Assembly (NCBI GenBank): GCA_020536535.1
Contig: JAHLWZ010000797.1
Coordinates: 89,623 to 153,622 of the forward strand
Source of the DNA: Pelomyxa schiedti
Lineage: Eukaryota > Protista > Evosea
DNA: 64,000 nt
Direction of reading: 5' to 3'
The position numbers and the translations under genes were made by a program. The notes beneath the pieces were generated by a model. It saw only the letters and a list, made by a program, of their open reading frames with translations. It did no database searches and had not been told where the DNA came from. Positions within the stretch are counted from its first letter, which is position 1; each line of letters opens with the position of its first letter. Of the stretch, positions 10,480-53,100 are shown piece by piece.

Positions 10480-12678
10480 TTGATGGGGTACCAGGCCAGG
10501 GTTGTCTTGGTGTCTAGGGTAGTGTGGGACTGGGTTCTGCCGTGGTTGGTGCCGTGGGGCCGGCTGACGCGAGCGGCGCCCGCCGCGCTCAAGTGCAAGC
10601 ACGCGGCGGCGATGTGCGTGGTGGCCGAGGCCATGTTCCCCCTCGTGCCTCGCGTGTGCTCCTCCCTCCTGGCCCACAACGAAAAACGGCGCCCCGTCCT
10701 TTCCGCCGCCGCCGGGGCCGGCAGCCCCCGTTGCATCAGCTGGGTCCTGAAGCACAACAACAATAACAGCAGCAGCATCACTAATTGCATTGGTGGTGGC
10801 AGTAGTAGTAGTGGTGGCAGCGGCGAGAGTGAGAGTGACATCAGGAGGAGAGGGAACAAAGATTTTATGGAGGTTCTGGAGGGCCTGTGTGCTGGTGGTC
10901 ACCTTGGAATGGCACAGCGGCTGATTGATGGCAATTGGCCCGGGCTTACGTGGTGGAACGAGGGCGGCGCCAGTGGTGCTTCTTCCTCCGACGGGATTGA
11001 GGATTACGTGAGGGACTCACATATTCTCAGGAGAACGTGTGCCTCGGGTCACAGCGATGTGGCCAAGTGGCTGATTGAGAAGTTCAACATCAGGGAGACT
11101 TGGGAGTTTACCGATCCGCTTGTCGGGGCCTTGAAGGGTGGACACTTGGAGTTGGCTCAGTGGCTGACGGCCACGTTTGACTTGGTTACAAAGCTCCGCG
11201 ACTTCGAAACTTACAACTTGGATGTCCACTATGAAGCGTGCAAGACTGGAAAATTGGATGTCCTCAAGTGGTGCTTTGACACCTTCCCTTTACGTGATAA
11301 TAATGGTTCATACCGTTATTTTGCAGCTTGCATGCGGGGAAAAACAAGTAACTACGTGGAAGCCTGCCAGTACGTCCAAGATAAGTTTGATTTTCCTTCT
11401 CCTCCATCAGACACAATCCTTGATAACATACAAAACGTGGATGTACTAAAATGGGTAAAATCGGCATTGCCAGTCTTGGTTACCGGCATCCACAGCACTC
11501 TTTCAAACTGCATTGTAGAGAAGCTTTGCAGAAAGCTAGAAGGGGCTAAGTATATTGTTGAGGCCTGCTCAATCGTCCCGACGCCGATGCTGTTCCGTGC
11601 AGTCTGTCGAAATCCAAAAGGTGATATCCAACCTGTGAAGTGGTTATCAACAAGAGTTACATGCTCGCCAGTGGATTTAGAGGATGCACTCATAGCGGCT
11701 TTGGCCAAAGGTAACATTGCAATTGCTTCGTGGTTGGATGAGACCTTCAACATCTTGAAACTAGTCATTTCTGCATCCGCACCCAAAGTAGAGACAGGTT
11801 CAATGCTTCTAAGAGTGTGTAAAGAAATGGAGGAATTTGAAGCCCGAGTGGAAGGTATAGAGTGGCTTCTGAATCGCCTAGGAACAATAGGAGTGCAAGA
11901 AAGTTTTATCGTCGATTCTGTGGAAGAGCTTCTGTTTCATACCAAGTCAGCAGCCGCTGCCATGTTCCTCATCGACAAGTTCTCCATCAGTGATCCACGG
12001 CGTTCTGAACTTATGTTTCCTCTTCTGAATGAAAGTGTTCAATCTGAGCCTATCTCGCATATCAAAAGAATAATTTCCATGGGGGAGTTCAGCAAAGAAA
12101 CTGTGGCACCGTGCCTTAAGAATCCCATTGGCGTGCAGTCTGCCAAAACTGTAAGGTGGTTGATCACACACTTCCGGCTTGACCGCGAGGATATCACGCA
12201 AGACAATAACTGCCTGCTGTTCCGTATGTTATCATGGAGACAAAAGACCTGTGCTGAATGGCTCATCACGAATTTTCACATCACCTTGGAAGAGGTCCGG
12301 CTTCCCTTCTCCCTCCCATATAGTAATATTGTATTACCTTCAATGTTGGTCTGACCTCACTCACACCCTAACCTATCTGTTTAGGTTTTGAGTTTCACTT
12401 GGGAACCTTCTAATGATTTGGTCGAGATGGACTTATCCACCTGGAAGATGATACTGAGGATGTTCCCAGGTATAACGGCACCAATGATAAAAGAGAAGTT
12501 CCTGTTCCTTGTATGCCAGTCCCCAGTAATTGCACAGTACACAATGAAGCTATTCCCTGAAGTTACTCTTGCTGACCTTGTTGGTTTCTGTGCCGGTTAT
12601 TCGCGCTACGATTTCCCACCGACCACTTGTTGCTGGTTGCAGGAGGCCCACCCTCTAATATGGGACCCGTTCGACTGA
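10480..12678 (+). CDS. Lineage-specific ankyrin-like repeat protein (true start uncertain, possibly ATG 10267)
   Basis: 624-aa ORF with degenerate ankyrin-type repeats (LCAGGHLGMAQRL, CASGHSDVAKWL, ALKGGHLELAQWL, ACKTGKLDVLKW, ALAKGNIAIASWL). An intron at 12295-12384 joins a final exon ending at 12678. Confidence 0.7.
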
Positions 12679-14581: not shown

Positions 14582-17500
14582 TCATGATCGGGACAGAGAT
14601 TGTGCATCCTGTCGTGGTGAATGAGATAGTCCGGACTGGCTCAGTGAGTGCATCAAAGATGATGCTGACGATGCTGGTCTCGATGGCGGCACCGGTGGAA
14701 GAGGTTTCGCCGTTGGTATATTTGGTGCTGTGGGTTTGAAGGTCTGTTGTTGCGGTTGCGGCTGCGGCTGTGGTTGTGTTTGTGATTGTGGCTGTGGCTG
14801 TGGTTGTGGCTGTGCTTGGTTTGGAGTTGTTGATTTTGGTTCTGGCCCTGGGGATTGAACCTGTGGTTGTGATTGGGGTGGGGTGTGTGAGCAAAATCTC
14901 TCGCTTACCTTGCACCATGCAGTGCAAGTGAACGGGCACCTCGTTAGAAGTATTATGGGCTTGGTGGGGTCAGTGCCTGGGGCTGATGAAGATAGGCTGT
15001 TGTTGTTATTATTATTGCTGGTGCTACTACTGTTGTTGTTGCTTGTACTAGTGTTGGGGTTACTGTTGTTTGCGGTTAATTTGAACCTGGTGGAATCCAG
15101 TTGAGTGATGCTCCATGCGGTGTGTGGAAATGATGCAGGGGGTTCTCCTGGTGTGATGGGCCACTTGAACAGTAGGATTTCTTCTTTGGAATACTCGCAC
15201 CATACCTGCTTGTTCCGAAATTTAGAGGTTTGGGCCAAAAGTCCCTGCATTAGGGGCAGCGGTTGGGGATTGTAGGTGTCAAGTGGCCGGTCGTGGAATT
15301 GGTTATAGAGGTGCTCCAGGAATTCCCTACATAACAACGTTAGCATGACCTAAATTGGTGATTTGGGGAAGTGGTAAGAGATACTTTGGAAAGTCATCCC
15401 CCGAGTTTCCTCCAGTGTTAGTTGCTAACCAGCGTTGGAGGGTAAAGGCCTGCATCCTTATAAGTCGGAATTCCGATTTCGCTAAAGAATTGAAATCATA
15501 CCCCTTGATGATCTGATATATGAGGTTCGGCAATAATGGCAGTCATGGCAAGGCTTACAACCGCGTTCTCGTCTTTGAAAAACTGTGAATCATACTGCTT
15601 ACTCTGCAAATACAATTTTGCGTAACACTTCAATATGTTTCCCTTCTTGTCATTGTTCGGAGGAAGGTAAATCATTCTCCGGAGCATGCGCAATGACATT
15701 TCAAAATCGTAAAGATGTAAGTCCATTTTTCGCAGATAGGCCATCAAAATGGCGTCTTGCTTATCACCACTTCCCAAGTAGTCCCCGAGTAATGGGGGCT
15801 TTAGGGCGGCTCTGTTGTCAATCAGAAATTGTGCCACGGAGGCAGGATCTTTGCCTGGGGCAAGATGGGGAACACCTTTATCAGGACTGTCTGAGGTATT
15901 TTGAAGAAGCACTGGCATTGGCATCGGTAGTGTTGGAGAGGAGGAGACTGGGGGTAACTGGGTGCTTTTTATGACAACAACCTCTTTGGGAGTGTCACTT
16001 GAACTTGATTGTTGTGAAATTGTGCTCACGTCATTGTATTTTGCAGTGGGATTACTGTCAGGGGTTATTGGCCTGACACTGTTTAATAGGTCGGATCTGT
16101 TGCGTGGAGATTTGGTACGAGGTTTCATTTCAAGACTTGGTTGGGACTCCCTTGGCGAATTCGAGGCATCAAGTCCCATCCCGCTTTCTGTTTTCGTAGA
16201 TATTTGGCTGATGGTGCCTCTTGCTTTCACACAAAAATTATGAGTACATTTTTTTTCACACTTCTGGTGCACGAGAGATGAACAATCTATCTTCCATCAA
16301 CTCAAGTGAGTAAAAAAAAGAGGGAACACATACTCCGGCACTTGTATGTGTTGGAGAGGCTGGTAAGTTTATAGCACACTATGCAGATTCCACTTTGAAT
16401 TGGTGACGCGGGCGATAGAGGTTCGAATTGGTGGGTATTCATAGCCGCGGGCCAGATTAATAACCTTTTATCAGAGTGCACTTTTCACTAAATGTTAGAA
16501 CAGCAAACACACTATGTGACAGAAGTGTTTTTTTGTGCGTGGATGTCTTTGTGTAAACCAAATTACCAGTCCATATTGTGCCTCGAGATTCAGCAAGAAC
16601 AAAAATTGCAGCAGTTGGCCGGGGGGAGCTGAAAGGAACAACTTGATGCCCCTCCCGTGTCTAAAAACCTTATTTAGATCTGGTGGAAGACACATGCTGA
16701 TACAAACCTGCGCATCCCAAATCCACACGCCTCCTTGAAGAAAGCCCCAAACAACCCCTCCCAGGAACATGAGTCTTGGGGGGAGTGACACAGGCAATAT
16801 CCCCTTTATATTACCCTGGACAAGTTTGTGAAAAAATAGTTATACTAAAAAAGAGAGTACATTAAGGTCCCATATTGCAAGAGACTGGCTTGTGTGTGAT
16901 GACCAGATTTCAATCATCTCGTTGGATCTTACTGCCACAATAGATTCAACTTGCCCTTTCTGGGGTTTAAGGTCGTTTATTTTTTGGTCCTATGCATTGT
17001 CCGTCAGTACAATAGTGAGGGATACGAGACGTTTTACATGTGCATTCACTGTAGAAATTCCATTTGAAGTGCCCAACCATATTGTTTTACCAATCAACAG
17101 TGCTGATGTTACAGTAAACGATATTGGTATAACTTTTTTGCATTTGAACTTCTAAGAAATGTAAGAAGAGAAAGAGTTCCGCATTACCAAACTGAGGTAT
17201 TCCATATGCGAATTGATCTATCTGAGCCAAATGACCAAATATGTGTACCAACTTCCAATAGAGAAACAACTGGTCCATTTGTGTGGCCCTCCAGTTCTTG
17301 ACTGCAACATGAATGTACCTGAGAAAGTGAGCCAGATTTGAAAAGCCATTGGACACACACAAGATTGAATATTCTTACAACACCATCTTCACACCCCATC
17401 CACAAATGCTGTGTCAATACAATTGATGTCACCGGGGAACGTACTTCGTAGGTGGCACATGGCATGTAATGTGTTGGAGAAATAAGAGTAAGTTTGGGTG

Positions 17501-33810: not shown

Positions 33811-34020
33811 TTTGGCACCTTCTTTTGGTAAGTGATAGTTTCTTCTTGCCTTAAGCCTGAGAGAGGTGATCTGAGCCCACCCACTTCATTCCGCTCTGTT
33901 ATCAAGAGCGTGATATCAATCTCTTCTCGTCTTCATTGCAGACACAGTGTGGTGCTGTACAGGAAACGAACACTTCTTTGGCTAAATTGGTTTTTTTTTC
34001 CGGTTTCACCAAAGACGACG

Positions 34021-36696
34021 ATGAACGGGGGCGCTTTGCGACAACAGATACCGTGGTGTGTATATTGCGCGCAGAGGGTGTCTCCCGACTGCGTAACACT
34101 GTCGTGTACCGCCGGCGGCGTCGCCCACTCCCTGTGCTCCCAGTGTTTCCGCATCCTCTTCGAGTTCTTCCGCACACAGCAGCACCAGGCCCTACCAACT
34201 CCCCCGCCGGCGTCCGCCACCTCGAGGCCTGCGACGCCGACCGGGGAACCGCGCCAGCAGCCCGACGTGGTGGCGATCACGTGCCCGCTGTGCGACTCCG
34301 TGACGACGCTGCCGCTGACCGACGGCTGTCCCACCGGTGGGTCCCCCAAACCCACGAAATCCGACGGTCCAGGGACGACTACTGCTGCGATGGGAGCCAC
34401 TTCCCCCCCACCCACGCCGTCGCCGACGCCGACGCCGGCGCCAGTGGACGACCACGTAGTGTGCGCCGTGTGCTTCGAGGCAATTGCGGTGTCACAGTGC
34501 CTGGGCTGCAAGTATTTCTATTGTGATTCGAAACAGTGCCTACAATTTGCCACGAGGCAGCATGCTGTTGTTGCTCGTCATAAGGTTTGGTTCGCCCAGT
34601 CGACACACACACAAAAAAAAAAAAAAAAAATCCTCACGTATATACAAAAGTTTGAACTAGCACCGTTGGATTCTCCTTCTAAACCATCCCCTAACGTGGA
34701 GGAGAGTACGAGTCTCAGATGCCAAGACCACGGCAAGAAGCTAACATTGTTCTGCCAAGAGGACAAAGTTCCTGTTTGCTCTCACTGCCTTTTGATTGGT
34801 AAACCTTGCCTTCACGAAAAACTACACCATGGGGAGCGGGTCTTTCTCCATTTCAGCCATGTTAAACTTAACTCAATTCAAAGGGTCGCACAAGGAAGGC
34901 GAACGCACACATAAGTGCACGGGAATCAGTGAGGCATCTCCTGCAATTAAACAGAACTTAAAAGCCAATATCAAGAGCCTCGACGACAAGATAAAAGCGA
35001 CGAAATCAACCTGCAATGCTGTTTCAGAGACGTCTTCAAGAGTAAAATTGTCAGCAGATGAAGCAACCAATATGATTGAAAAGACCTTTACTGAATTGTT
35101 TGATGCACTGGCAACCAGAAAGTCCGAGTTGCTGAAATCTTGTGGAGCTCTCTCATTCCAGAAACGTGTGGAACGTAATTACCTATTGTAGTAACGTACT
35201 TGTAGTCTCACTACTGCGGGAGAAGTCAGAATCCCTTGAAGCACAAGTGAAGTGCATCACAGGTTCCATGACAGCCGCTCAGGCATTGTGTGAAACATCG
35301 GATTCACTAAAAGTGTGTGCACTTGGCCCGGCAATGGGCACGTGGAATCACCGTCTTAGCGGAATTCCTTCTGCTCCGATTAATTGCGGATCGAAGATTT
35401 CTTTTTCATCAAGTCTTACGGGGTTGAAAGAAGTAATCCAGTCTTTCGGGTCTGTTTACAGTGGTATCATCTCCTCCTTCAAATGGATTTGTTAACTCAA
35501 CAAACAAAGTTGAAATTTCCCTTGAATCAAGCAGCTTCACATTGTCCGGTTCTATTCCGGATATTGCATTTGTTGGCGACACTGTTGATTTCAGTGTCTC
35601 ACCTGCCTCAATAAAAACGGCCGACAACAATACAATAGGGAGCATCACTGATCTCCGAAACTTATTGCAGGTCAATGTTGTACCTCCCCCCACCACTTCA
35701 GTTGCATCTACCAGGATCCCCTGGACATCAGAAAGGTTCGGACCTGCTTCTTTCAAATTGGAACACGTTGGAAATTACACAGTCTGTGTTGAAAGAGTTT
35801 CTGATGTGAATACCGGCGTCAGTATGACACAAGATAAGAAAGTTCTGTGCACCATTGAGGCATTGGGTCCGCCACCCCCACCACAAAACTTAACAGCCCG
35901 TTCCACAGAACCTGGAGTGATCAGTGTGAGCTGGGACCGTCCCTCTGCAATCCCCCCAAAAGCACAGGTTGGATACAATGTTCTTGCTGCAGTCGGGGCA
36001 TTCAAAGTGGAGCTGAGGCAACACAAGGAAACGCAAGCAATCATCAGGGACATTCCAACTACACAAGGGGACAACGCGCCAATCAAAGTGTCAGTTTCTA
36101 GTGTTTCATTGTGCGCGGCCCGTAGCAGTTCCGGAACTGTGTGTGACACCGTGACTGGAGCCACTTCTGATGTTTATGTTTCTCCCATTCCACCCAACAA
36201 ACTGGATTCTACATGTGCAGGTTCCGTAGTCACAATTGGACTTGCTGGATTGAGTTGCACTGTGCCAGGTACCTGCATTGTGCTCGCTGAGAGAGGGTTC
36301 ATGAGTGGCTCGCACCACTGGGAGTTCACTGTAACAAAGGTAGGCAGCAACTCACACTGTGGCGTTTCCCTCAAGCCTCCTCAATCTTTGGAAAACTGGC
36401 TTGGATCCATGCAGACAGGTTTTGATGTTGTGGGTTACGCAGACGGTACTACTGCCCCCTGCTACCATGCAGGGTCAGGTTATGAAAAGGTGCCGGTGTT
36501 CACAACGGGGGACAAAGTTGGATTCACCCTCCACTGTGACAAGGGCACATTGGATTATTTCCAGAATGGCACACTCGTCGGCACTTGTTTGTTTGGCGGC
36601 AAACTCAAGGAATTTTGTGGTGTCCGGCCCCTTTACCCTGCTTTTGGTTCCAACAGTGCTCCAGCAGAATACACAAATATTTACTTTGCCTCCTGA
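34021..36696 (+). CDS. TRIM-like E3 ligase: RING, B-box1, B-box2, coiled coil, FN3, SPRY/B30.2
   Basis: RING CVYC..C..HSLCSQC...CPLC; B-box CAVC..CLGC..YC; B-box CQDH..LFCQED..VCSHC..H; heptad region; FN3 PPPPQNLTA...VSWDRP; SPRY GFMSGSHHWEF...GDKVGFTL...TLDYFQNG. Confidence 0.85.
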
Positions 36697-36906
36697 TAAA
36701 GTGGAAAAACAAAGCTGTTCCTGCATAACGTTACCCCAAGTTGTTTCCAGACTTGTTCTCAGACTTCTCTTTTTGCCAGAAACATCAACGTCCCCATAAC
36801 TGGAAAAGGCAGGTGTTGTCAACTGTCTTTTCCTGAGAAAAACTCCGTCAACCCTTCAAAAGCCAGTGGGCAACCAAAAACTCGAAGAGAAAAACAAGAA
36901 AAGAAA

Positions 36907-39900
36907 ATGAGCACCACGGTGAGGGCTCGTTACCGCCCCTTACGTTTTTTGGTGTTCTGAGAGAGATGGTTAATGTTTAATTTCCCCTGACAGGAACCAA
37001 TCACGGTCGAATCTGTTGTGTCACGTCTCCGATTTGATCCCAGCAAGAGAGACGACACATCAAAAGCATTGTTGGAATTGATTGACGCTGAAAAAGAATA
37101 CCCAAAGGAATGGACACTCAAGTACGAGGCCTGATGCTGCACATCTCATTTTTTTGTTTTTTTTCGGCAAGCTTAGCTTTAACAAAGGTTCTTGGCACTC
37201 GGAGGTGTAAGAATTTTAATTGACTTTGTTAACTCTCTGGCTACAACCGAGTTCGTTCCCCCCCCAAGTATTTAGTTGTTATAACATAAATGACAATACA
37301 GTAAACCTGATGAAGACGTGAAAATGGCCGGTTATGCAGTTGCAGCAATCAAGACTCTACTGCGCCATTCACCTGAAGGCCAACATGCCGTTTTGGGCTC
37401 ACACGATATTGTTACACACCTCTTTGCATGGCTGAGAGCAATCCCAGGGGCAAGTGACCGGAATCCCCTAATTTCTGAAGTAATGTCGTTACTACTGGCT
37501 GCTCTAGTACTTCCACCGCCATCCGGTGACGCTCCATGCAAAGGGTAAGTGTTCTTTTCTTAGACTTTCTTTTTTACTTGAATAATATTTTTCAGGAACA
37601 TTTTAAAAGCACTCACATCTACGAAGCCCATGTTTGCAATTGTTAAGGAGCTACTGGAGTTACCATTCTCTTCACGAACTAAGACTAAAGTGCTGTCTTT
37701 GATGAACACTTTACTGTCACAAGCAGATAGGGAAACTAAGCAAGCATGGGTACAGGAGCTCTGTCAGTTGGAAATCGTCCGAGTCTTGAGATTTGTGGTG
37801 CGACTCCCTCCCCTCCCCACATACGTGCTGACTTTGTCTAGATCACTGGTGGTAGTGATTATGGATTCTTGATTGATCACGTCCTCAGATTGAATTCTCA
37901 TATTCAGGAATTTACCTCTCCTCTCAAAACTGTCAGAGAAACAAAACCCACTCCTTCAAAAGTCTCCACAAGTCCGAAGGTTGTCCAGTCTCCTTCAACA
38001 CCCCCTCCTCCTTTCCTAGGTGGCCCACCACCACCACCGCCATGTGGATGCCCACCACCACCACCACCACCACCACCGTGTGGATGCCCACCCCCACCAC
38101 CCCCAACTCCGAAGACTGCAGCTATAGAGCCTACTTACACCATACCTCCCCAACTATTAAGTCAACCCAAGCCTACCCACTCCCTAACCACCCCTGTCTG
38201 GACCCCTATGTTAAAGAACGTCATCCCCAAGACGGTAACCGCCTATCTTTGAAAGGCTGTTAACCTCCCACAGATCTTTTCCACACTGCCACAATTAGAG
38301 TTTGTTCCCTCATACGAGGAAATGGAAAGAAATTTCATGAAAATAAAGCTCCTGGACCCTCCAAAGTGGGTTCCCCCAGCCACTCATCATTTCGAGACAA
38401 TGGCAGTCTACAACGTTGGTACGTATCTAAGTTTCATCATCTATCATAATCTCCTCCAGCCGTTGTGTTGCACAGCTTCTTTCCAACTACACCAGCTGCG
38501 GAGATACTTCGCGCTATTGATACAGTGAATGAGTCATTTTTTTCTGATGAAACTCCCCTCAAAACTCTAAGTCATACCCTTGAGAAATTTGGGCTACCTG
38601 AGGTTGAAAAATTAATCTATTACTCAGTACAAAGGCTAACATTGAGTTAGCCTGGCTCTCTTGAAGGGCTATCTCTTGAACCACAAGAACAATTCTTCTT
38701 GGAGGTAGGATCGTATTTTAAACTTAGATAACATCGTACAGCTATCTCATATTCCAAATGTTGCTCTGAAACTAAAATCTCTGATTTTTAAGAAATCCTT
38801 CCTGGCAACTCTCCAAGAAATCAACAAGGTTTAAATAAACATACTAATTTTTCCCTAACCGTACGGTGCAGACAATTTCTGATGCCGAAAAAATGTGCGG
38901 TGCTATGATGTCAAGCCAGAAGTTGAAGAAATTTCTTGCTTTACTTGCATTGGTTGGAAATTTCTTGAATGGCGACAGGCCTGCTTTATTAACAGCAGGT
39001 TTTAATTTGAGCGCTCTACAGCAGGCATCGTCTGTTACACTGATTTGTTTGTTGACGTTTTCTCAGCTAGATGAGGTACGAGGGGCTACCACAAATCTAT
39101 CTGCAGTCATTTGTCATATCATTTGCACAACGGAAACCCTTTCTGATCTTGAAAACCTTGCAGATGACTTTCCCATGCTCCCTGATATAAAAGATACTTT
39201 CTTTGGTATAAAAAAAATCCCTCCACTATTCAATCACAGTTCACTTGAAGATTCCGTAAGCAAGCAGCTCTCTTCTTTAAAGAAGGAGCTAGATTCATTC
39301 CAGGATCTTGTGGATCTGGTACAGAAATTTTTTTGTGCTTGTCCCCTTCTCATTCATACTCAGTCCACAATAAACCCCGAAATCGTTAGAGCTACTGAAA
39401 GTTACCACCGCACCCAGTCCCTCATTGAAAATACTGCACTCTTCTTTGGTGAACAATCTGTAACCACCACCCAGGGATTCTTTTTACCACTGGTGCAATT
39501 TCTACCCAATTTTGCGGTATGTACATTTGTTTTCACTTTCTCTTCACTCACTGGCACAAGGTACAAATAAAACTGCGAAAGACTCATCCACTATCGTATG
39601 GACCTACACTTTTGTCTGTGGCACACTAACCCCCTCTACGCACAGAATACCTGTGCTCAATAAAGCGGCTCTTGTACTTAACAATGCGTCTTTGTTTACA
39701 GTGCCAGCCCCTACACCAGCAACGCCAATGCCGTCTCCAGCCTCATCCACTGGAGTACCACTTCCACCGCCTCCCCCTACCAAGAATACCCGCTTGCTGA
39801 AGAACGATATTCCCTCCAATTCTCCTCTTAGAGCCCAACAAAAATCAGTTTACAAGCTCAGAAATTGGTTCTGGCATGGCTTCAACCAGTCTCTTCTTCC

Positions 39901-41529
39901 AAAGACGGTTTGGCCTACCTTTTTTGAGTCACCCTAACATAACTATTAAGATCTTTTCTCAAATGGATAAAGAGCTTCTTGAGGTCAAGGTTCCTTATGA
40001 TCTTCTAGAAGCATTCTTTGCTATTACCAAACCCAATGCAACCTCTGCCCTTGAGCAAACTCCTGCCTCCACTACCACTCTTGAAGAAGCACCCGATAAG
40101 CATAGGAAGATTATCAATGCAATAAAGAAAAAGACGTACGTGTCTGTGCTTGGCAACAGGGTAGCAATGGCGGCAGGTTTTCAGCACTATCACTCTTCAA
40201 AGTCTATGGTTAAATGGAGTTCATAGATGTGATGCTTCACCTGTGGAATGGAACTCCAGATACACTCTTGCGAGCCATCACTGAAATGGACACAACAAAT
40301 TTCAAGGACTCTGTGCAAATAGACTTTTTGGTGGAACACTGTAGGTGCTTCGAAACTATTCCGGAGTCCCCTTCACTTTTATCTCCACCAGAACAATTCC
40401 TACTTAAGGTATAACTTCATGAAATTAGATCTACAAATGAAAAATCTTCAGGTTTGCCAACTCCCCGATGTTGAGAGCAAGTTACTTTTCATGAAGTTAA
40501 AGATCGATTTCCAAATTGTTGTAGATGATATCACACAAGTATCTGATTCACTTAGAATGAAGCTAATTAGGTGTCCAAATACAGAGTCAACAAATCTTAG
40601 ACAGTGCCTGCAAAGCGCTCCTTCAAAGTGAGAAACTTCGCAAACTACTTTCTCTGTTGTTACTAGTTGGAAATTTCTTGATTTCCAGCACTCGACGAAA
40701 GATTCATTTTGCCTATGATCTGAGCCTGCTTTCTTCAGTTGAGATTTTCGATTTTTCGTTGCATCTGCTGACAATCCTTCCTCAAGCTTCGGGAGACAAA
40801 ACAGCGTGACGGAAAGACTTTGATGCATTACATCTGCCAACTCATTAAATCAAAAGAAGGGCTTCATGATCTGCAAACTCTCAAGCAAGAGTTGAAATCA
40901 GTCCTCGACTTACCACTGAGTACAATTACACATTTCCTCTTTGTGGGTTACTTAAGTTTAACGTCCTTCTAGTGCTCATACAAAGTGGCGAAGGGTGGTT
41001 CTTGGAATCCATTATTCGCAGACTTGACACCAAGAGTGACTTCCTCACAGCTCTTCCTTTGAAAGACCAAGTTGCCTTCTGCATCTCATTTTTTTTTTTA
41101 ACTTCCACAAAGACGTTCTTCAACGAAGCAAAGAACACAATGCAGGGCTTGCAAACAAAACAAAACACCCTTAGAGACCTCCATCAACAAACACTCAGCT
41201 TCCTGGGCTTACTTCCCAAGAACATAAGTTCAGTCAACCCACTGTTACCACCACCTGCAGAACTCGGTTACCTGTTTGTCTCATTCTTCCGTGATATGGA
41301 GGTACTCCTCTACCGTTCCGAACCTCACACCCATACTTCTAAAGAGATGTGTGAAAGAAGAAGCCGAAGAAGAACGCCAACTGGAGGAACAAGCAAAGGA
41401 ATCCGCGGTACTTTTTTCTTTTTATTTGGCATTTCAACCTCCCCACCACAATAAGTGTTCTCTTCTAACATCCCATAGAAAGATGTTGCGGAGGGTGTTG
41501 TGTGGAGCCTTATTACTGCCAAATTGTAG
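36907..41529 (+). CDS. Formin with GBD/FH3-like N-terminus and two tandem FH1-FH2 modules
   Basis: Poly-Pro FH1 at ~38001-38107, then FH2 #1 (W..W-type lasso, EQFFLE, LVGNFLNG...GFNLSALQQL). Second Pro tract at ~39700-39790, then FH2 #2 (KLRNWFW, PEQFLL, LVGNFL...YDLSLLSSLRETK...TLMHYI). DAD-like end GVVWSLITAKL*. Confidence 0.8.
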
Positions 41530-41705
41530 GGAAAAAAGAAAGAAAACAACAAAAAAAAAACATTTTTCTACAAGAGAGTTATGGACAGACTTTCTACAAG
41601 ATGATTTTTGATGATGGTGTCTTTCCTTTGGGGGTTCCTATCCCACAAAGGGTCTATGGTAGCAGTCAAAATGGGGATGTTGCCGGGTCCCCTCCGCTTG
41701 TTTGT

Positions 41706-42626
41706 TTAGCTGGAGCTTTCTGCAGTGGCACTGGTGGTAGTAATCGGTGGAGTCTTGGAAGCCGACGGGGGCGTTTTGCCCAGCACGTTGCCGAGAATTC
41801 CCAGAAGAAAGGCCGTGTGTTGTAGAAGTGGAGTCAAGTCCTTTGCTTCATGGTCCAATTCCATTCCCGCCGGCGAGCTGCCGTTGGGTGGTGGGGATGG
41901 ATCAGTTTGGCGGGAGGACTCTACTGATGATATAAGGTGAGCCATCCTTTCTTTGAGTGTGTCGAGCAAACTGGTGGTTTCTTTCATGCAAGATACTGTA
42001 CATAGTGTAAGAACGCGAAAAAACGGGCGAAGTAGTAGTAGCAGTAGTAGAAAGAAAGGAATTTACCGAGGTCGTCGTTTCCACACACAGCTGGCGACAC
42101 ATCGCTCTGTGCCAGATTCACAACGCTTGTGCTCAGAGGAATCGGGGTGGAGGACACGCAAGTCGATACGGAGCACAAAACGGCGGGGCTACCATCGTCT
42201 CCCCCGCCGGATGGCGCCGCCGGAACAACTTCCTGCACAAGCACCCGCAGCCGCTCGGCTGGAATCACCCTCCTCTCCTTCGTCGCGAACATTGTGACGC
42301 CGACCGCTGCGCGCCGAACCGGCGCTTGTTTGTAGACGAGATAAACCGGCGCCTCGTCCGCCAGTTGCGGCGCCACTTCGTGTAGGACTCCCTCTTTCAA
42401 AACGCGACCACACCACACTAGTCTTTGAGACTCTGGTGGATAGCCAAGCCTGCATTAAAAAAAAAAAGTGTTACTAGTTGCGATGGAAGAAAGGGGGGAA
42501 AAAAAAAAGCGGAACGTACTTGTCGTAAAGAATCACCTTGAGGTCTGAAACGGAACTAGATTGCGACACCGACACGCACGCTTCCTCTTTGTTTTGTCGT
42601 CCGTGGAACACGCGCAGGTGATACAT
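41706..42626 (-). CDS. Ubiquitin-like domain-containing protein
   Basis: Spliced N-terminal Ubl signature SVSDLKVILYDKLGYPPESQRLVWCGRVLKE...VYLV; helical C-terminus. Confidence 0.7.
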
Positions 42627-42986
42627 ACGAAAGACCGTTTGTCGATTTTATTATCTTTTTACATGTTTCATTTGACTTTTCCGCTTAAAAAGGCCGGAAG
42701 TTTCTTCATTTCTTCGTTGATCTCTTTCGTGTTTTTTAAATAGGGTTGACAGCCTGAAGATTTGATCAACAGATGTTTTGATCACCTACCCCCATAGGGA
42801 CACTTGAAAGGGCGTTGTCCCATCTCTTTATGTGCAACTTCTTTGTTTTACGGGGGGAGTTTCTTTTTTAAGGAACAAACTATTATTTACAAAACAACGT
42901 AAAATGTGCATAAATGCTTCCTTGTTTGTAACTGCTCAAGGATCCGAGACATTCGCTCCCCTTGAAACAGTTGGATTTGGCAAAGT

Positions 42987-45900
42987 TCAAGGATTTTTAG
43001 CCTTCATGGGAATTAGGGTGGGTGAACAGTATTTGGACCCACAAAAGTGACACCCACAAAAACTGCCACCACACCATTCGCAAGAACAATCATTGGTGCT
43101 GGGATAGTTCTCCGGATCTGGAGGTATTGGCTCCAGATCGAGTTCATCCAAAGTGGGCTTGATATAGTCCAAAAATGGAGCAGAGAGAACGGTGCCGAGG
43201 CACGTCATGGAATCCTGGTCATTGGAATTCAACCGCGAAAAAATCCTGCTCGCTCCCTTCTTTTGCTCCTCGGAAATGGCCTTGACTGCCGCGATGAACG
43301 TGGGTGCACTGGAGAAATGGCACGACCACTTGAGAATGTTTCCCAACAGGACAAACTGCATCTTCGGAAGCGCTGTCAGCATCGTGAGCAGAACCTGCTG
43401 CTCGCTCTCCGGTGATAATTTGAAGAGTTCGAAAATGAGCGATTTCGCACCGACGAAGTAACTGTGCACGTTATCGCCAACCAGATATTCGGTGATAAGC
43501 TTTTTGCAGTACCTGGCAGCGAACTGGTGGTGGGTCTTGGCCACCATGCACACCATTCCCGCCCACCCCTCCAAGAATTTATCCATGTGTATCGACGCAT
43601 CCGGTCCGAAAGGAGAGAAGTGCTCACAGAGATTTATCAGAAAATCGATGTCTCTCGTTGGATGTGCGCGGCACTCTGTGTTTGGTGGGTGGCTCGCTGA
43701 AAAAATGGCACCAAGGGCAGACAACAGGTGTTCACTCTCTTCATCCCCTCGTTGTAGGGCAGTGGTCGCACTGAGGTTTATATCATTCTCCAGCCTTGGA
43801 GAATAGAAAACGCTGTGGTGCTGAATCAGCTTGGAAATGAGGAGCACATGTCCGATTTCCAATGGACCTGAACAGTGTTGTTCCATGAACCGTGGAATTT
43901 GTCCAGTGGAGTGCAGGATTTTGGCCAACAGGTTTGCTGCGTGGCGGCGGTTGGACCCCCTTCCTTGCGTTATCACCCTTGTAATTGGTACCACCCATTC
44001 TGGGGAAGGAGCTCTGTCAAGTTTTTCAAGTACCTTCAACTGTTCCCCCAGAGTTTCATCAGCAATCCGGTCAAAAGGCGCAATTTTGGCGCTATCCACC
44101 AGGTTGGTCCGAGACAGTTCAGTTTTTGCTGTGTTCATCTCTACAATCTCAGATGCCAGCCCAATCGAGACTGTCCTCACATCCTCAATGACAGAGGCAA
44201 TCGTTTCATTGGGAACTATTTGCTTGATGTTCTCATTCATCGAACACCTGCCCATTACCACCACGATCGTGTTGCAGATGCTCAGTTTTGTACTTCTATC
44301 TTTCCCCTTCATGCAGTCCAGAAGGAAACCGAAAATCTTTGAAATGAGAGTTGGGGAACAGCACAGGCGAATAATCTCTGCCAGAACCCATTGCACGGTT
44401 GTCACTGAACTTGACTTTGTGTGAGGACGAGTCCACAGTGCGCTCCCTGGTGTTGGGTTGGTGAAAATCTTCGCCAAGATTCCCTCGGCACCCGCGGTTC
44501 TAATGCCTGGCCACAACTCGAGAACCCTTATGGTCGTGACGCACAACTTTCGCGTGACGACGTCGTCTGGAGCAATCGGCCCATGAAGGATTCCAATCGT
44601 TTCAAGAAGCGAGGGAGGTGTGGCTGCTGGTTCGGAAGAAGCCGCCCTTATCGACGACATGGCAGCAGCTCCAAACAGTTGGACTGCCCTGGCTCGAACC
44701 TTGGCTGACGGGTCCCTCCAGAGGATGTTTATGTCCTCCCTGGAGAGTGAATTGCTGCTGCTGCTGTGAACAAGGAGCGAGGCTGCATTGTATCGCACAC
44801 TTTCGTTGGAGTCACTCAAGAGTCCCCGAAGTTCCTGCAACATTTCAGCGGTGAACAAGTGCCGGTTGTTCCTCAGGAGATGACCCAGAGCTTTGGGAAG
44901 CGCGGGGTGCCTGTACTCCTTCCTGAGGGTTGTGACAAACTTTTGCAAATCAGTGGCCGGAATGACTGCAGGATGAGCGAGCACGACCGTTTTCCAAAAG
45001 AGCAACCCAATCGTCCCCAGTGCGTCGGATTTTTTGACGTGCTCCAGACAACAGCGCAGAAAGGGCTGGATCAGAGGCAAAATGAACTGGTACTTCAGTG
45101 TGACATCGTCCAATCTTTTCCAAGCTTTCGGAGTGACGATTTTGTGCTCGAGCTGTTGAACCATCGATGCCTGATTGAAATCCTGGCCCACAGTGCCCGC
45201 CAATTTGCGCTTGTATCTCTCTTGCCAGAACTCTGAGTTGTTGACTTGGAAGTGCCTCAAGACCGCACCGTTGAATTGGGGAATGAAACACTCTGGAATA
45301 TCCAGTTTATGACACTCTTTGATTTCGAAAACTTCAAAATCTCCAACGTCCGCTGCTGCGTCGTTGTTTTCCTTGATTTGCAACTTGAATTCCACCAGGG
45401 ATTCGCATTGAATGACGTGGACGCACTTGAGCAGTCTCCCTGACGTTATTTTCAGAGCCACCATTCCGGTGCACTCTTTGATGACGAGCACACGAAGCAT
45501 CGGAAATTTCCCTGTTATTTGTTGAATGTCGTTGCACCGCAGAATGTGAAGACTTTCGAGAGACAAGAAGAAGTCCGGCAAAGAATCCAAGGGGCACGAA
45601 TCAATCCTCAAGTGCACGAGTTTCTTCCACGATTGTTCCAAAAGATTCGCGAGAGAAGTTTTGCAATTGCCTGGAACACCAACGAGAGACAACTCGGTGA
45701 ATTGGTCCCCCTTTTCCATGCAATGTTGAAACAATGAAGGTGCCGCTTCGACAGCAGCACGGCCTGAAAATTTGGTGGTGTTCAGCAGGTTTTGCCTCTT
45801 CCACGCGATCCTAAGTCCACAAAAACCTTCGGTGACACCTTTTTCAAACTCTTTGAGGATTTGAAAAGCCTCCAAAAAATCTGAACAGATGTCGGTGATG

Positions 45901-48900
45901 GGGTAAGTGCCCAACTGTTCGAAGTTGTAAAGTTCATCGTCCTCCTGACTGTGTGTGTGAAACGGAGGCAACTGCTTGCTTGAAAGGCATGACCTGACGA
46001 TCGGAATTCTTTGAAACGAAGTCGAGCAGTCTACAGTCCACTCACCAGTGGCCACCGTGTAACACTTCCCCATCGCCGGGTCGAAGGCGTTCAACATATC
46101 TCTGTGAGTCCAGTCTTTCGTCTCGCTGCTGCTGCTCCTCAGGAGGTGTTGCAAGAACTGGAGCCGCTTCGCCAAGTTCGGCAGGTTGGAGATTTGCAGG
46201 AGAGATGTCATCTTGTGCTGTTCCATCAATGCTGGGAACCCTCCAAACAGTTCCTTGATCTTTCTGTCGTGGACCTGTATTTGCTCCCACCAATGTTGCA
46301 GAAGACGAGGCGGCTCCAGTTCCAAGAACGCGGAGATCACGTGTGGGTGCACCTTGAAGTTGCCGTCGAACATCTTGGGGAGACAAAAGATGTGGCTCCT
46401 CAATTGGCAAACCCCATCGCGGATCAGAGGGGTTGGCATGAAGGAATCCGTCAACTGTGACACGAGCCACCCGTCTTGTATCGACATATTCTCGGCAGAG
46501 TCCTTCTGTGGCTGAAGCAACAGTGTTTCGATCACCTTCCAAGAGAATGCCTTTGGGTGGAGAGTGCTCACCAATCGATCCGCGGATCCCCCCGTGTTGA
46601 CGGGGTCGCCTTTGGTGGGCATGAATAAAAACACAGGATATGGCTCTCGCGGGCGGTTTGGATGAACGATTCTTGCGAATATTGCTACGGTTCCGTGTCC
46701 ACTCAGCAGATACGTCAACTCGGCAGCCGCAAGTTGCCGCAATGGAAATGTGGGGTAAAACTTGATATGTGCTATCGGTTGCCCGTCGCTCTTTTGAATG
46801 AGCCTTGTCAGGGAGGAGGGGTTTCCTCGAATTGATCCATCTTCCTCAAACAACATAGCAGTATACTCGTCTTTCAAGTGAGTGGTTACACTCGTTCCCC
46901 TTGCGTTAATCCATGTGATCACTGCTTTGGTCGTGTCCAGTGGGGGTGGAGCAACAAGCTCAGACAGATGAGATTGGAGCAATGCTTTGGTAATATCCGT
47001 GGAGAGATGATACCCAATCGAATTGAGAGGCACGGACTCAAACCAGTTCTTGATTCGCGGAAATCTTCTGTGATCATAGAAGTGCTCGCTCAGTTTTCGG
47101 CGGTCTTCACAACTCAGTTTCCAATAATATTCCTCGAACTCCTCCAATTCGATCTCCTCATTGCAGAGCAGTTGGCAACAATCCCGCAGAATTTGCTCAA
47201 TGCACCGTGGATTGTTGCAGAAGGGACTTCGTTCGACGAGAGCCTTCAAGTTGATGCGAGTGTATTCAAGTTGGCTCATGAACGGCTGAGCCAGCACAAG
47301 GATTCCAGGATCGATCCGGATCGCATTCGAGAAGAGCGACACAAATGAATCCGTGTCTCGGCAATGACGGTATTTGGCAACGGCCAGATTGAGATCGAAC
47401 TCCGCGTCTTGATCATCGAAAGAGTCCGCAACCAGGGCCATTGCATAGTGCGCCACCGCATTTCCCCATTTCTGGACAAAAAGGAAGCTGTCCCCGCGAC
47501 TTTTGAGCAGGATGTACATGGGGAACGGAGAGGAGTCGGCGGCGCAAGAAGTGATGGAGGACCACTCTTCCGCTATTTTCAGTTGAAGCTGTTGAATGGC
47601 AACTTCGACTTGCTGAGTGCACTGCTGCTGCGTGTCCAACAGTGCTTTGTCGCACACGTGTTGAAGCCTGTAAAGCAGTTCCCTTCGCCTCGTTATGTCA
47701 TCGGAATATGCCAGCACGCGATAGTAATATTTCAGTTCCTGCGTGATCGAATCCGGCGCCCCGGAGACGGTTGTCACCCAGGCACTTGGCCGCGGGATGT
47801 GGGTGCTCACGTTTTGTGCGGACACGTCGCAATCGAACAGCGACTGGTTGTCGCGGTAAAACACGCAGAATTCTGGATAAACCTGCTCTTCAGGAACGCA
47901 GAACTCGTTCGAATCGAAGCAACTCTCGGGATCGAAGGCACCATTGGGCCCCCATGATGAATGGAATCCCCTTTCAGGCCCTTCCGCAAATTTGCGGCCT
48001 TTGTTTCTGTCGACATAGATATTCCCCAGTGTCACCCTGCAAATAAAAACAGCTTTCAAGTGGTTGCAGTTGTTTTCTGTGCAACTCTCGCACTTTGCGT
48101 AAGTCGCCACCTTCGCAAACGAATCTGACAAGTAAATTCCCCTGCCCAGCGCTCCATACCCCACTCCCGCTTTTCGTGTTGCAAACTTGGAGCTGAACCC
48201 TCCCATTGTGATTTTCTTCATCGTCGATTGTGATGTCCCGTGGAAGAGCCAACATTCTCCAACCGCCCGATTGAGCACGGGGAGGCCACCTTCGAGTTTA
48301 GCCTGCCAGCGTATCTGTGATGCTTGGGACTGTATTGTTCTTGCTCGCAAAGAGACGGAAATATCCCCCTTTTTCTCTTGGTACTGCTGCCATAATCTGG
48401 GGTTGTTCATCACCTTTATTTCGTGGATGGTGATGCTCTCGGCTTGCCCCAAGTGTGTCGGGGGCTGCCTTGTCTCCTCCTGCAAGAAATGGAGCAGGTT
48501 TCCTCCCTCGGCAGCTTTCTTGAGCCGGGAGAATTCAAAGTAAGTCGATTTATAAGTCTCTGTGTCACTTGTGCCGTGTATCAGATAAACCAGAACCTGC
48601 CAGAGCTTTTCACTGTTGGCGATGCTGCATACCGTTCCTAATGGAGGAAGCCAATTGGAATCTGTCACCCAGGTGCCTGGTGGGGGAGGCCACAAAGGTG
48701 AAAAGCTGCCTCCAGAGGCAATAACTTCATTGTAAAGGAATTCAGCAATCCAGGTTCTGTCCACCCTCACTGTCTCCGGAAAAGAGAAACCCAACTGAGT
48801 CCTCAGAGCCTCAAGAGACTCACCTTGCAAAATTTCAAGAGACCGGGGCACGGTCGCGGCCCTGATTGATCTGCACAAGCACAACTGGGAGCTTGTGAGT

Positions 48901-50074
48901 CCTTGAGTGTCTTCGAAATTGGAGTCGCAGAGTTCACTGTTGTTCAGAATGCTGCTTGTCAAGGTTGCAGCCTGCATGGATGCCCCAGAAAGCACGGCAC
49001 GTGAGAAATCCACACCAGAGAGGCAGGCGTAGCGGAACAGAGGGTTTTTCGCATTGAACATGGACATGTCAGCTTGGCTCAAGTTGGCCCAGTCAAATAT
49101 CACTTGATTTCCCTTGCCCCCTTGGAAGCTCGAGTTCATAAGTGAAGTCCCTGTGAAATCAGAGTGGTTGATCGTGCACCGACAGAAGTTTGTGTGATCC
49201 ATGCAACATCCAGAAAACTTCAACCACTTCAATTGTCTGTGGCCAGCAAAAGAAGTTCCGAAAAACGAGAGTCCGCTGAAAACGATGGGCCCGTGAGTGT
49301 TCCTCAGAGGCACCCCAGAGAAATTGCAGAAGGTGAAGTCGATGTGGACGCACTCACGCAGGGACCGGAAGTTGCTCAATCTCAAGGGGACGTCGTCAGA
49401 CTGAGGGTCCCTCCAAGAGCCCTGCCCCAAAATGTCGCAGGTGAAGTGGGCCCACGTGTCGTTGGGATCCCGCAGCGCGAGCGTGATGAGCAAGCTCAGG
49501 GCGTACTCCGACGTCGCCGCCAGGTCCGTCAGCCTGCCCCGCTCGTCTGGCGTCAGCTCCGAAATCGAGATGTGCTGCTTCTTGTTGTTGTTGTTGGCGG
49601 GGCCTCCTCCTCCGCCGCCCCACGTTGGAATCAGAGGAAGGGACACCCTCGAGATCAGGCCCGCGAGGAACAGATTGTCCTCGTATGACGATGCCGACGC
49701 GTTGGCGGGGCTGCTCGAGTCAGAGCGGGGGCGTCCCGGCGGCGTCGTCGGAGTCGCGGCGGCTGCTGCTGCCCCAACCGAAACTGACCTCGGGACAGAC
49801 GGAGACGGAGGGGGAGTGCCACTGGAAGGAGGCGGGGGCATCAGGCACTCGCGCAACTTGGTTTCGAAATTGAGCTTCCTCAGCGCCTTGATTCGGTACT
49901 GCCACAGCGGTTGGCCCTCATGCCTCAGGTTGCCCAACGCGAACGCGTTCAGCGGTTTGAAAAATTCGGCAAGCAACCTGCCAAGCTGGGAAAAACCGTA
50001 GGTAAGCGTATTTGTGTTGGTAAAAAAGCACGGTAGGGCGCGGGAAAAGGCCTCACCCTGATGGCGTTGTCCAT
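42987..50074 (-). CDS. ~2,340-aa multidomain protein: pentapeptide repeats, PARP (ART) catalytic domain, TPR, PI4K/HipA-like kinase-like domain, LRR, HEAT/ARM repeats, Cys-rich tail
   Basis: A single 7-kb open frame. Likely start MDNAIR (ATG 50074) with one intron at 49986-50056. Pentapeptides (ANLSQADMS, ACLSGVDFSRAVLSGASM). PARP LFHGT/GRGIYLS/ATY/FICRVTLG/NEF/QVYPEF. TPR KSRGDSFL...AVAHYAMAL. LRR LESLHILRC/LRVLVIKEC. HEAT LLSDSNESVRYNAASLL. Confidence 0.85.
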
Positions 50075-50175
50075 TTCGATCGCGTCTTCTCACTTGGTTT
50101 CTTAACTTTTTGAGTTGGTTTTAAGTTTTTTTTGATGTTAAGAGAACGAGCTCCTTAGCAAAAAAGAAGGTGGTT

Positions 50176-53100
50176 TCAGTGCGAAAGTATTTCCATTTCT
50201 ACGGTACAGGAAGAGGTAGTGGAGGGGACGGGGCTCGGGGGTGGTGGGGGCTCTATCGTCGAGTGCTGTTGTTGTGGCAGCGGGGGCGGCGGGGGCAGGG
50301 ACTCGGCTGGTAGCTGTGGTGGTGGAATCGGAATGGAATCTGTGTAGTCAGGAGGGGGCGAGAGTGGGAGTGGTATTGGTTGCTGTTGTGGTAACAGCGG
50401 CGGTTCCGGTTGTACACTGGGGAATGGAATCGGTTGGATGCTGGCGAGTGACTGAGGTAGTGGGGGTGGTATGTCTTGGGGGATGGGGATTTCTGATGGA
50501 GGTGGCGGCGGGGGTGTCTGGAAGTCTTGCGGAGGCGGAATGTCTGGTGGCGGAGGCGGTGCAATGTCCTGTGGGGGTGGGGGAAGTAGAATTTCTTTCG
50601 GCGGTGGCGGTGGTGGTATGAGGAGTTCCTGTGGTGGAGGTGAGGGTGGAATTGCTATGTCCTGCCGATTTGGAAGCAGTATTACTACATCTGGAGGTGG
50701 GGGTGGAGCTGGTGTTTCTTGTGGAGGAAGGGGTACTGTGATGGTTTGTGCTGACCCTTGAAGTGCTCCGAGGTCTTGTGGAGGTGGTGACACACTGATT
50801 TGTGGAGGTGGAGGTACTGCAATTTCTTGTGGAGGTGGCACAATAATTTCCTGCGGAGGTGGTGTTGTGATTTCTGGTTGTGGTGGAACGGTTATTTCTT
50901 GTAGTGGGGGCGGCACTATTATCTCTTGCGATGAGGGTGGAACAGGAATTTCTTGTGGAGGTGGTTGTATACCTTGTGATGGTGGTCCAATTTCTTGGGG
51001 CGGTGGAATTTCTTGTGGTGGTGGGATGAACTGGCCTGGAGGTGGAGGAATTTCTTGTGGTGATGGAATATTTGAGGTGCTCACAGGTGGTGGAATCTGG
51101 ACAGCGGAAGAAGGCGGTTTTTGAATGTCATTTGCTGGAGGAGGTATATCAAAATTGTCATAAACAGATCCCTGCATTACGGTTAATTCGCTGTTGACTT
51201 GCAATTACTGTTTTTCGGTACCACAAGTCCATCCAGAGAATTTGAGCGCGGTTTGTGGTGTATAACAGGTAATTCCTGTGCTACTGGAGAGTGGCTAGGT
51301 AGCTTTACATATTGTTACCGGTAGAAAAAAAGGGATAACGCACTGTTCGTTGTTGTCCCAGTCTGGAAGGGCTCGGGCTTAATGAGGTACTGGACTTATA
51401 CCAATTGCATGAGGTATCACAGAGTTTGCCTGGGTTGTGTATATGTGGAGTGGATGAAGTTGTAGTGGCAGAAGTGTGTAATAGATGAGTAGGTGACTGT
51501 GCTTGCGGATGCAATGGTTTGAAGGATGTACATTTAGCTGGTAAGTTGGATGATGTGGTGGTTGCTTCCTGTTGTCAAATTAAACTAACGCACTTAACAG
51601 GGATTCGTACTAATTGTATTTTACCAACACGAAAGCACAACATTGAACAGTGATCCATTTTTCCTGAAGAAAGATTACATTGCTGGAAATTCCTGACTCG
51701 CTCGTACCAGGGTAAAGTTGGTAGTTTGAGGGAAGCCGGTCCCCAGTTTTTTGTTCCATAAATTGTCTGCTACTTGTTGTAGTCTCGAAACAGTGTTGGC
51801 GCAGGATATTACAGAGATCCTGAGGACAAGTTGACTTATTGAAACATTGCTGCAGATACTGGAGTGAATAATTCATCTGTAAAATGTGAGTATTGGTAAA
51901 ACTGAATAACTACTTTAATTTGCGTGATATCCTCTGGTGTATAGTCATCCCAGGAGGTTTTAGACGGGTCTGGGCCCCCAGCGTTCTGAAGATTATTTTT
52001 GATTGTGTTGGGTCAAGCTTTGGGTTTTACCTGTGGTTGCAATCCTAAAATTTGGGGATCGAGGTTGTCATGTATCCCATCGGATACCATTAGAATCCAG
52101 TCGTCCTCAACGCAAGGAATACAAAACACCTTGGGAAAATGAACGAAATATAAGTAGATTAAAATCCAACTGCAAGATTTCGGGTATCAGGGAGTCCATT
52201 TTTATAAGGGCCCAGCCTTCCACCACAATCTCCTGCAGCAAGGGTATTGAGGCGGTGTTTACGTGTCACATCAACGACAGTATTGCCGTTACTTGTTTGA
52301 ATACAGAAAACCTGAATATGGTTGATAAGAGTGCCGGGATATGACGTAAGTAACTTTACAGTCTCCTATAGCACAGCAAACAAATTGAAAGGGATGCTTC
52401 TCCTCTTTGTTTTCCACAAGAATTCCCCCCAGGATGGTAGTAGTCCCAGCCTCCCACCACGCATCCCCAAAGCCCTCTAAAATCTAACAAGATTCCATCG
52501 GCAACGGGATTCATTTAGAGCAGATCAAACCTTGTAATGAGCAGCAGAAAAAGCATTCAACATTAAAAACCCTAGTTCACGGGTATTGTCGACTGTCCCT
52601 TGGTGCTCATCTACATATTTCAAAAAAGTTTCACATGCATGATGAGCAGCGTTTCGTGAAGGGACGCCCCAATTGCCTATTTGAGAAAGTAAACGTAAAA
52701 TTAGACCACAGAGATAAAGCATACAGCCATCTGCCACACACGCAACAGTTCTGTTTTGGTAAAACTGAAGACCAATGCAATCACACACTGGGTCACCATA
52801 CCGGGTCGAATCCTAGAATATGAAAGAAAAATTGAGGCCAAAGACAGAAAGCAAATAATGCTCACAGGCAATATTGGATATGTGCTGAATATTTGAGTTG
52901 CAAGTGTTCCTTGAATGTAAAAACAGTTATCAACGTCGCTTTCAACAGTTGGAAGTAGCAAAGACAACACTGGATCGCCACTTGGGTGGCGAAGTGTATA
53001 CCTAATTGGTGTAAATTAGCTCAACGCACATCGCGAGTGAAAATAACCGTGGAAATTTGCTGGTAAACTCTTTAAGAAGTACATTATCAGGAGAATAATA

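Follow-up and report, generated by a model that had tools for sequence, protein, structure and literature searches.

Where does a giant protein of the amoeba Pelomyxa schiedti, built around a PARP-type ADP-ribosyltransferase (ART) domain, come from, and what might it be used for? The gene, annotated as Pelo_10512, is located on the reverse strand at positions 42987–50074 of a 64,000-nucleotide stretch of contig JAHLWZ010000797.1 (assembly GCA_020536535.1, positions 89,623–153,622), hereafter called the window, to which all coordinates of the gene and its neighbors refer. A preliminary description made from the sequence alone had proposed a sensor-coupled poly(ADP-ribosyl)ating or NAD-consuming defense protein, or a domesticated toxin. 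Collinear homologues were found in bacterial genomes bearing DotI/IcmL, with the Pelomyxa copies nested among them, and these two results support the domesticated-toxin option. The explanation that we prefer, with a probability of roughly 0.55, is that an effector of a Dot/Icm-bearing intracellular bacterium was acquired once and has been kept as a predicted active ART on a scaffold of a predicted pseudokinase, leucine-rich repeats (LRR) and HEAT repeats, likely modifying proteins in dealings with intracellular microbes.

Gene Structure, Integrity and Expression

The gene lies in a stop-free frame of 2377 codons (42987–50120, reverse strand), the runner-up in the window being 634 codons long. 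The start codon given in the preliminary description (ATG at 50074) was found to be in a different frame from this long open reading frame (ORF). Joining an 18-nt exon 1 of six codons (50057–50074) over a predicted 71-nt GT-AG intron (49986–50056) to exon 2 (42987–49985), which runs uninterrupted to the stop codon, gave a protein of 2338 aa that is 100% identical to Pelo_10512 and of equal length. The claim that one frame encodes a giant multidomain protein was thus borne out.

The region 41500–51500 was spanned by a single contig in assembly X4 and by overlapping pieces in assembly X3. No indel was present in exon 2 in either assembly, and X4 showed a 1-nt deletion at 50022, within the predicted intron. 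Among 40 listed allele differences (11 more lay beyond these), 34 fell in exon 2, and 26 of them were synonymous and eight non-synonymous, where a synonymous share of 0.23 would be expected (pN/pS approximately 0.09, binomial p 5e-11 for the 34 listed differences). This comparison shows that purifying selection acts on the gene.

RNA contigs from two runs of one sample covered parts of the gene, and none of them had a joint inside it, so the frame is not split by any RNA contig. Transcription is supported in part, because these contigs span neither the whole gene nor the intron, and none lies over exon 1. The genes on both sides are densely spliced. Pelo_10512 has one intron over 7 kb, compared to a genome mean of 7.43 introns per gene (PMC8887013).

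Bacterial Relatives of Pelo_10512

Three further P. schiedti proteins, Pelo_10683, Pelo_16630 and Pelo_4303, share the ART-to-LRR layout, which brings the copies in this species to at least four. Pelo_10683 showed 60% identity to Pelo_10512, and the other two approximately 30–34% in the kinase-LRR region. The same layout was found in two metagenomic sequences, P0004, with a tail of F-box-like and OTU domains (together with HEAT repeats), and L001, with a tail of ankyrins; the F-box-like tail of Pelo_16630 is common to P0004 (E 4e-11). Next to the chassis gene of L001, an LRR protein (L001:8257–11640) has an N-terminus that looked macrodomain-like by eye; a Pfam search gave no match, and the macrodomain was dropped.

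G001, a metagenome-assembled genome of the Gammaproteobacteria, contains three ART copies on a single contig that also bears DotA, beside cydA and an AAA ATPase gene. Those copies whose downstream region is contained in the assembly end in WD40 tails, and two of the three (L002 and L003) are in pieces. A second gammaproteobacterial genome, G403, contains a collinear version of 2980 aa with a tail of ankyrins and a Ras-like GTPase domain and with aminopeptidase, Fic and transporter genes as neighbors. In the same genome eight giant ORFs of approximately 2200–3360 aa (L027, L032–L037) contain the kinase-like domain and one of them the ART, the others showing WD40 or Sel1 repeats at the start or no Pfam match. 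That the chassis also exists in bacteria can be regarded as settled from the sequences of G001 and G403. The bacterial form consists of an N-terminal domain, pentapeptide repeats, ART, four-helix bundle, TPR, an intact phosphatidylinositol-kinase-like domain, LRR and an exchangeable tail.

DotI/IcmL was detected in all five ART-family genomes tested and in none of 14 controls, and because of the DotI/IcmL and DotA markers we read the order of G001 as Legionella-like. Members of the ART family occurred in 12 of the 203 genomes that were scored for this order, three others lying outside the count, and in four of 401 genomes sampled from its class. Outside G001 and G403, the family ART stands alone or behind a SidE-type phosphodiesterase. 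ARTs with the Cys cluster and without pentapeptide or kinase parts (L010–L020, L022, L029) came from G209 and from 11 further genomes of the order to which G001 belongs, and Pfam placed a SidE phosphodiesterase domain ahead of the ART in both of the two proteins tested. A stand-alone family ART of 376 aa in G239 (L028:10948–12078, reverse strand) adjoins a protein-kinase gene.

In a sister chassis the place of the ART, ahead of the same kinase-like domain, is taken by a DUF294/SidM-like nucleotidyltransferase (P0013, P0017, P0021–P0024, P0026, P0030, P0035 and P0037, one of them from Ca. Neptunochlamydia). Its tails are ankyrin, Ras, LRR, TPR or protein-kinase domains, as seen in a domain scan that covered 28 of 67 matches. 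Relatives of the kinase-like domain include named records from Chlamydiae, Gammaproteobacteria and Verrucomicrobia. Besides, the 2045-aa JGI protein P0101 has an effector-caspase-like domain (best PDB match E 4e-29) fused before the N-terminal domain, pentapeptide repeats, kinase-like domain, LRR and WD40 repeats, the ART being missing. A first GTDB scan with whole-protein patterns and a scan of viral sequences gave no match, a fold search among viral models retrieved generic PARPs only, and a plasmid scan gave three distant Vibrio matches without annotation.

Phylogenetic Position of the Pelomyxa Copies

The ART-to-kinase region was used for a 15-row tree, rooted by our choice on the long branch of G403. 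In it, the four Pelomyxa proteins formed a clade (support 89/93), which was joined first by P0004 (99/97) and then by L001 (99/99). Forcing the Pelomyxa copies together with an AT-rich clade that includes P0101 was rejected by the approximately unbiased (AU) test (p 1.8e-6). The same nesting was recovered in a 61-row kinase tree (96 and 96), in which the Pelomyxa clade lies inside a 99-supported group and 42 more distant rows, among them named bacterial records, lie outside it; this was a quick search with midpoint root, which did not include 17 ids of near-duplicates or fragments or any domain below 170 aa. Quick trees of the ART alone, including a 38-row version with G239 from which three redundant rows had been dropped, separated the family from 27 other PARP domains (support 100) and grouped the Pelomyxa sequences (90).

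Loss of Kinase Motifs in Pelomyxa

The kinase-like domain (46077–46997, aa 1003–1309) was modeled by AlphaFold with the atypical fold of phosphatidylinositol 4-kinase type II (PI4K II) and actin-fragmin kinase, with Z scores of 15.6 to PI4K II alpha and 11.7 to actin-fragmin kinase. LepB_N and PI3_PI4_kinase clusters are among its Atlas neighbors, at 0.92, and the fold is also that of the Legionella effectors LepB, AnkK and MavQ, which are covered in PMC9758233. Compared to the Legionella phosphatidylinositol-kinase effectors and PI4K II, the Pelo_10512 domain has no Pfam match, 9% identity and has lost its catalytic residues.

This loss was absent from the preliminary description and is confined to the Pelomyxa copies. 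All four Pelomyxa copies lack the catalytic-loop Asp, which 54 of 57 other relatives contain, the remaining three having Glu; the metal-binding Asp is kept in one of the four and in 56 of the 57. Both residues are replaced in Pelo_10512. At the ATP site, Lys1081 is changed to Met in the X4 allele, and Met is also found in Pelo_10683. From the alignment, the Pelomyxa domain is predicted to be a catalytically dead pseudokinase.

The ART Domain

The ART/PARP domain (47844–48662, aa approximately 448–720) was matched by Pfam PARP above the cut-off (E 6e-14). Its AlphaFold model was closest to tankyrase 2, with Z 22.1 and an rmsd of 1.9 for 198 residues, in line with the ART fold that had been proposed for 47850–48430. 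By profile alignment to tankyrase 2 the catalytic triad is H588, Y624 and E700. The H-Y-E triad reported earlier is thus kept, with a correction of the Tyr, which belongs to the GIY motif (Y624) and not to ATY, where Y635 is the second, stacking Tyr; both are present. Further sites are K631, Ala618 at the position of the acceptor Met, and a Cys/His cluster (C638, C641, C646, H648), which the alignment places at the tankyrase zinc site as had been noticed. Among 38 rows of the ART family the triad His was conserved in all, and the triad Tyr, the Lys, the Glu and three Cys in 37 each.

The protein is a PARP-fold member and not a tankyrase. It resembles the catalytic domain of tankyrase 1/2 (PARP5a/b) as best structural match, in the profile match (E 3e-8), in H-Y-E and in the position of the Cys cluster. 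It differs in its identity of approximately 23%, another Cys spacing, the replaced acceptor Met and an effector-like chassis in which the PARP domain is internal and not C-terminal and in which ankyrin clusters and SAM gave no Pfam match.

A Lys and a His are, together with the acceptor Met, tied to chain elongation, and an H-Y-E enzyme such as PARP4 can be a mono-transferase (PMC10711553). Met was found at the acceptor position in none of the 38 rows, the equivalent of Lys631 in 37, and that of His517, which by position probably corresponds to PARP1 His826, in 14 including Pelo_10512. Because the acceptor Met is replaced and H-Y-E enzymes can be mono-transferases, the poly(ADP-ribosyl)ating activity put forward in the preliminary description is at most putative, and Pelo_10512 is a predicted active ADP-ribosyltransferase.

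Other Domains and Neighboring Genes

The order pentapeptide repeats, ART, TPR, kinase-like domain, LRR, HEAT repeats and Cys-rich tail, and the positions of the motifs, were confirmed by Pfam, AlphaFold models and the sequence. The models cover aa 402–968 (mean predicted local distance difference test score, pLDDT, 78.9) and aa 968–1567 (pLDDT 82.0). The protein begins with a conserved domain of no known family (49359–49985, aa 7–215), which has a low-complexity insert at approximately aa 55–108 and is common to the bacterial relatives. Its motif was present in all 14 proteins examined, and an Atlas search with a bacterial copy as query gave no match above 0.9. It is followed by the pentapeptide repeats (48849–49355, aa approximately 217–385; PF00805, E 2e-13, above the cut-off).

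A four-helix bundle that was missing from the earlier domain list was found between ART and TPR in the model (47538–47801, aa 735–822). Its best match was the N-terminal bundle of TcdA (Z 12.5, rmsd 1.6 over 82 residues), and MARTX RID, the alpha-toxin of C. novyi and TcdB also matched (all Z 10.9–12.5). These toxin bundles are described as membrane localization domains (four-helix bundle membrane localization domains, 4HBM; PMC3417404), which occur in large clostridial toxins, MARTX RID and PMT and adjoin a catalytic domain, as the Pelo_10512 bundle does. Sequence searches of the bundle against Pfam and PDB gave no match, and the basic-hydrophobic loop-1 and Ser-Arg loop-3 features of the published consensus were not evident by eye. 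Because the sequence searches give no backing and the membrane-binding loop motifs are not evident, the bundle is a structural lead for membrane localization, as a structural match only.

The TPR-like helical repeats (47100–47534, aa 824–968) matched at Z approximately 11, a value that helical repeats reach by their common arrangement, and Pfam TPR_16 gave a weak match in a paralogue only. The LRR (45303–45908, aa 1366–1567) were modeled with Z 13–14 to LRR proteins (best 14.3). The HEAT repeats (44670–44894, aa 1704–1778) scored 21.6 bits with Pfam against a cut-off of 23.5 in Pelo_10512 and above the cut-off in Pelo_10683; their flanks within aa 1600–2300 are presumed to be helical. The Cys-rich tail (43023–43091) is, among the four paralogues, common to Pelo_10683 only.

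Upstream, a Pro-rich ORF (50176–51204, reverse strand) was considered for a link to the gene and dropped, as it has its own stop and the spacer contains frame-breaking indels in X3. No RNA contig joins the two, and RNA cover is absent in the spacer between them. The ORF, which belongs to the upstream gene as a Pro-rich exon, gave no Pfam match and differs in length by 24 nt, in frame, in X4. The spacer 42502–42835 was also without RNA cover. Other host neighbors in the window (33832–40226, 15496–16296 and 10450–12354) comprise B-box and SPRY exons, a formin FH2 exon, a Sec7 exon and an ankyrin-repeat ORF.

Origin and Possible Role of Pelo_10512

Transfer of toxins from symbionts to eukaryotes is a known event, with pierisin and Tox-REase-8 as examples (PMC3482391), and compared to these the Pelomyxa lineage kept a whole multi-enzyme chassis in which one enzyme was retained and the other lost. 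The same source covers the giant effectors of amoebal endosymbionts, in which modular repeats are likewise combined with an enzyme tail, OTU or another. It also covers Tox-ART-PARP and the related protein LDG_5757 of Legionella drancourtii, an intracellular parasite of amoebae, with a PARP-like H-Y-E toxin domain. Compared by description only, these toxins differ in that such an architecture and a eukaryotic recipient are not given for them in the accessible part of that source. No description of the architecture was found in the literature searched, which most subscription papers lie outside of, nor in the accessible parts of PMC5966428 and PMC9503650, and a search for 'Pelomyxa' with 'ADP-ribosyltransferase' gave no paper, in agreement with the earlier remark that it was not recognized from characterized proteins. 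The PARP-pseudokinase chassis and its fate in Pelomyxa therefore appear undescribed.

Horizontal acquisition of the Pelo_10512 chassis from a bacterial effector is, in our judgment, likely. The gene of a large, presumably secreted effector of a Dot/Icm intracellular bacterium would have entered the Pelomyxa nucleus in one transfer. It would then have gained one intron near its start and been duplicated, and the kinase would have lost its catalytic residues, the ART triad being kept under purifying selection. The ART may use NAD+ to attach one ADP-ribose unit or a few to proteins picked by the LRR and HEAT repeats, with the dead kinase fold serving as a binding or allosteric/regulatory module and the four-helix bundle perhaps placing the enzyme at a membrane, although the membrane-binding motifs are not evident in Pelo_10512. 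The likeliest setting would be control of, or defense against, intracellular microbes, the cytosol of P. schiedti containing numerous prokaryotic endosymbionts (PMC8887013).

Several points weigh against this explanation. The nearest relatives, P0004 and L001, are metagenomic sequences without an assigned organism, and L001 looks bacterial only in having a Shine-Dalgarno-like motif and two long ORFs without introns. The AT-rich clade with P0101 may be eukaryotic, in which case eukaryotes may hold more of the family, and the caspase fusion of P0101 suggests the presence of the chassis in further eukaryotes besides Pelomyxa. The root of the 15-row tree was chosen by us, and the ART-only tree had an unresolved backbone and a long-branch warning. 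DotA was detected in just two of the five ART-family genomes. The Z scores of the bundle are below 13, the caution limit of the fold tool for helical bundles. RNA cover is patchy and from one sample, with neither the whole gene nor the 5′ intron spanned by a contig.

Among the other explanations, a bacterial origin followed by recruitment for ordinary cell regulation (membrane traffic, cytoskeleton or signaling), with no role in defense or towards symbionts, is unlikely but deserves most attention. Strong purifying selection across the frame is as expected for a housekeeping gene, only four paralogues were found (a floor), and the neighbors are unrelated host genes such as those for a formin and a B-box/SPRY protein. 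The paralogues are highly diverged, on the other hand, down to approximately 30–34% in the kinase-LRR region, and the endosymbiont-rich cytosol fits a role in conflict without showing it.

We consider it rather improbable that pathogen sensing by the LRR and HEAT repeats switches Pelo_10512 on as a genuine poly(ADP-ribose) polymerase, or as an enzyme that causes cell death by NAD depletion, the pseudokinase serving as a decoy towards bacterial effectors. Its nearest fold, tankyrase, is a polymerase, and H-Y-E is kept, as are Lys631 and probably the His that PMC10711553 ties to chain elongation, but the acceptor Met is Ala, no SAM or other oligomerizing module was seen, and repeats inherited with a bacterial chassis need not have evolved as sensors.

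The opposite direction, in which the chassis was born in amoebae or other eukaryotes and captured by Dot/Icm bacteria so that the Pelomyxa copy is native, is a poor candidate. It draws on the closeness of the ART to eukaryotic tankyrase, on the view that bacterial PARPs are sporadic acquisitions, mostly PARP1-like and mostly held to derive from eukaryotes (PMC4245714), on the eukaryote-like LRR, HEAT, F-box and OTU domains and on the possibly eukaryotic AT-rich clade. Against this, the Pelomyxa copies are nested rather than basal and their grouping with that clade was rejected, the kinase is degenerate within Pelomyxa and intact elsewhere, the gene is almost intronless, and no named eukaryote but Pelomyxa was found among 30 matches looked up by name and 11 ART matches. 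Finally, endosymbiont DNA misassembled into the host contig, or a decaying insertion, is hardly credible. It draws on a long bacterial-type frame without introns, assembled from a single cell of an amoeba rich in symbionts, and is countered by the X4 contig and overlapping X3 pieces, the spliced neighbors on both sides, the 26 synonymous changes among 34 and the four different longest-contig sizes listed in the four paralogue records.

If the preferred explanation of a domesticated Dot/Icm effector holds, bacterial PARPs, usually read as eukaryotic loans, would here have made what looks like a return trip, and a free-living amoeba living with prokaryotic endosymbionts would have kept a whole multi-enzyme effector, a weapon of bacteria that it may now turn to its own use. 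The family offers a natural experiment, in which bacteria have an intact kinase, the four host copies all have a degenerate one and the ART is intact on both sides, and a test case for whether H-Y-E can polymerize without the acceptor Met. It also reveals a little-noticed bacterial family, whose ART with the putative zinc cluster is found by itself, in fusion with a SidE-type phosphodiesterase, or as part of giant proteins with kinase and LRR domains. P0101 hints at a second eukaryotic acquisition, and we put forward, as a tentative idea with the odds against it, that the giant ART-kinase Dot/Icm effector family was domesticated at least twice, in Pelomyxa with pseudokinase and retained ART and independently in an animal lineage with a copy fused to an effector-type caspase. 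If true, a tankyrase-type PARP would have passed from eukaryotes to bacteria and returned to a eukaryote, where it would now be a captured immune or symbiont-control enzyme.

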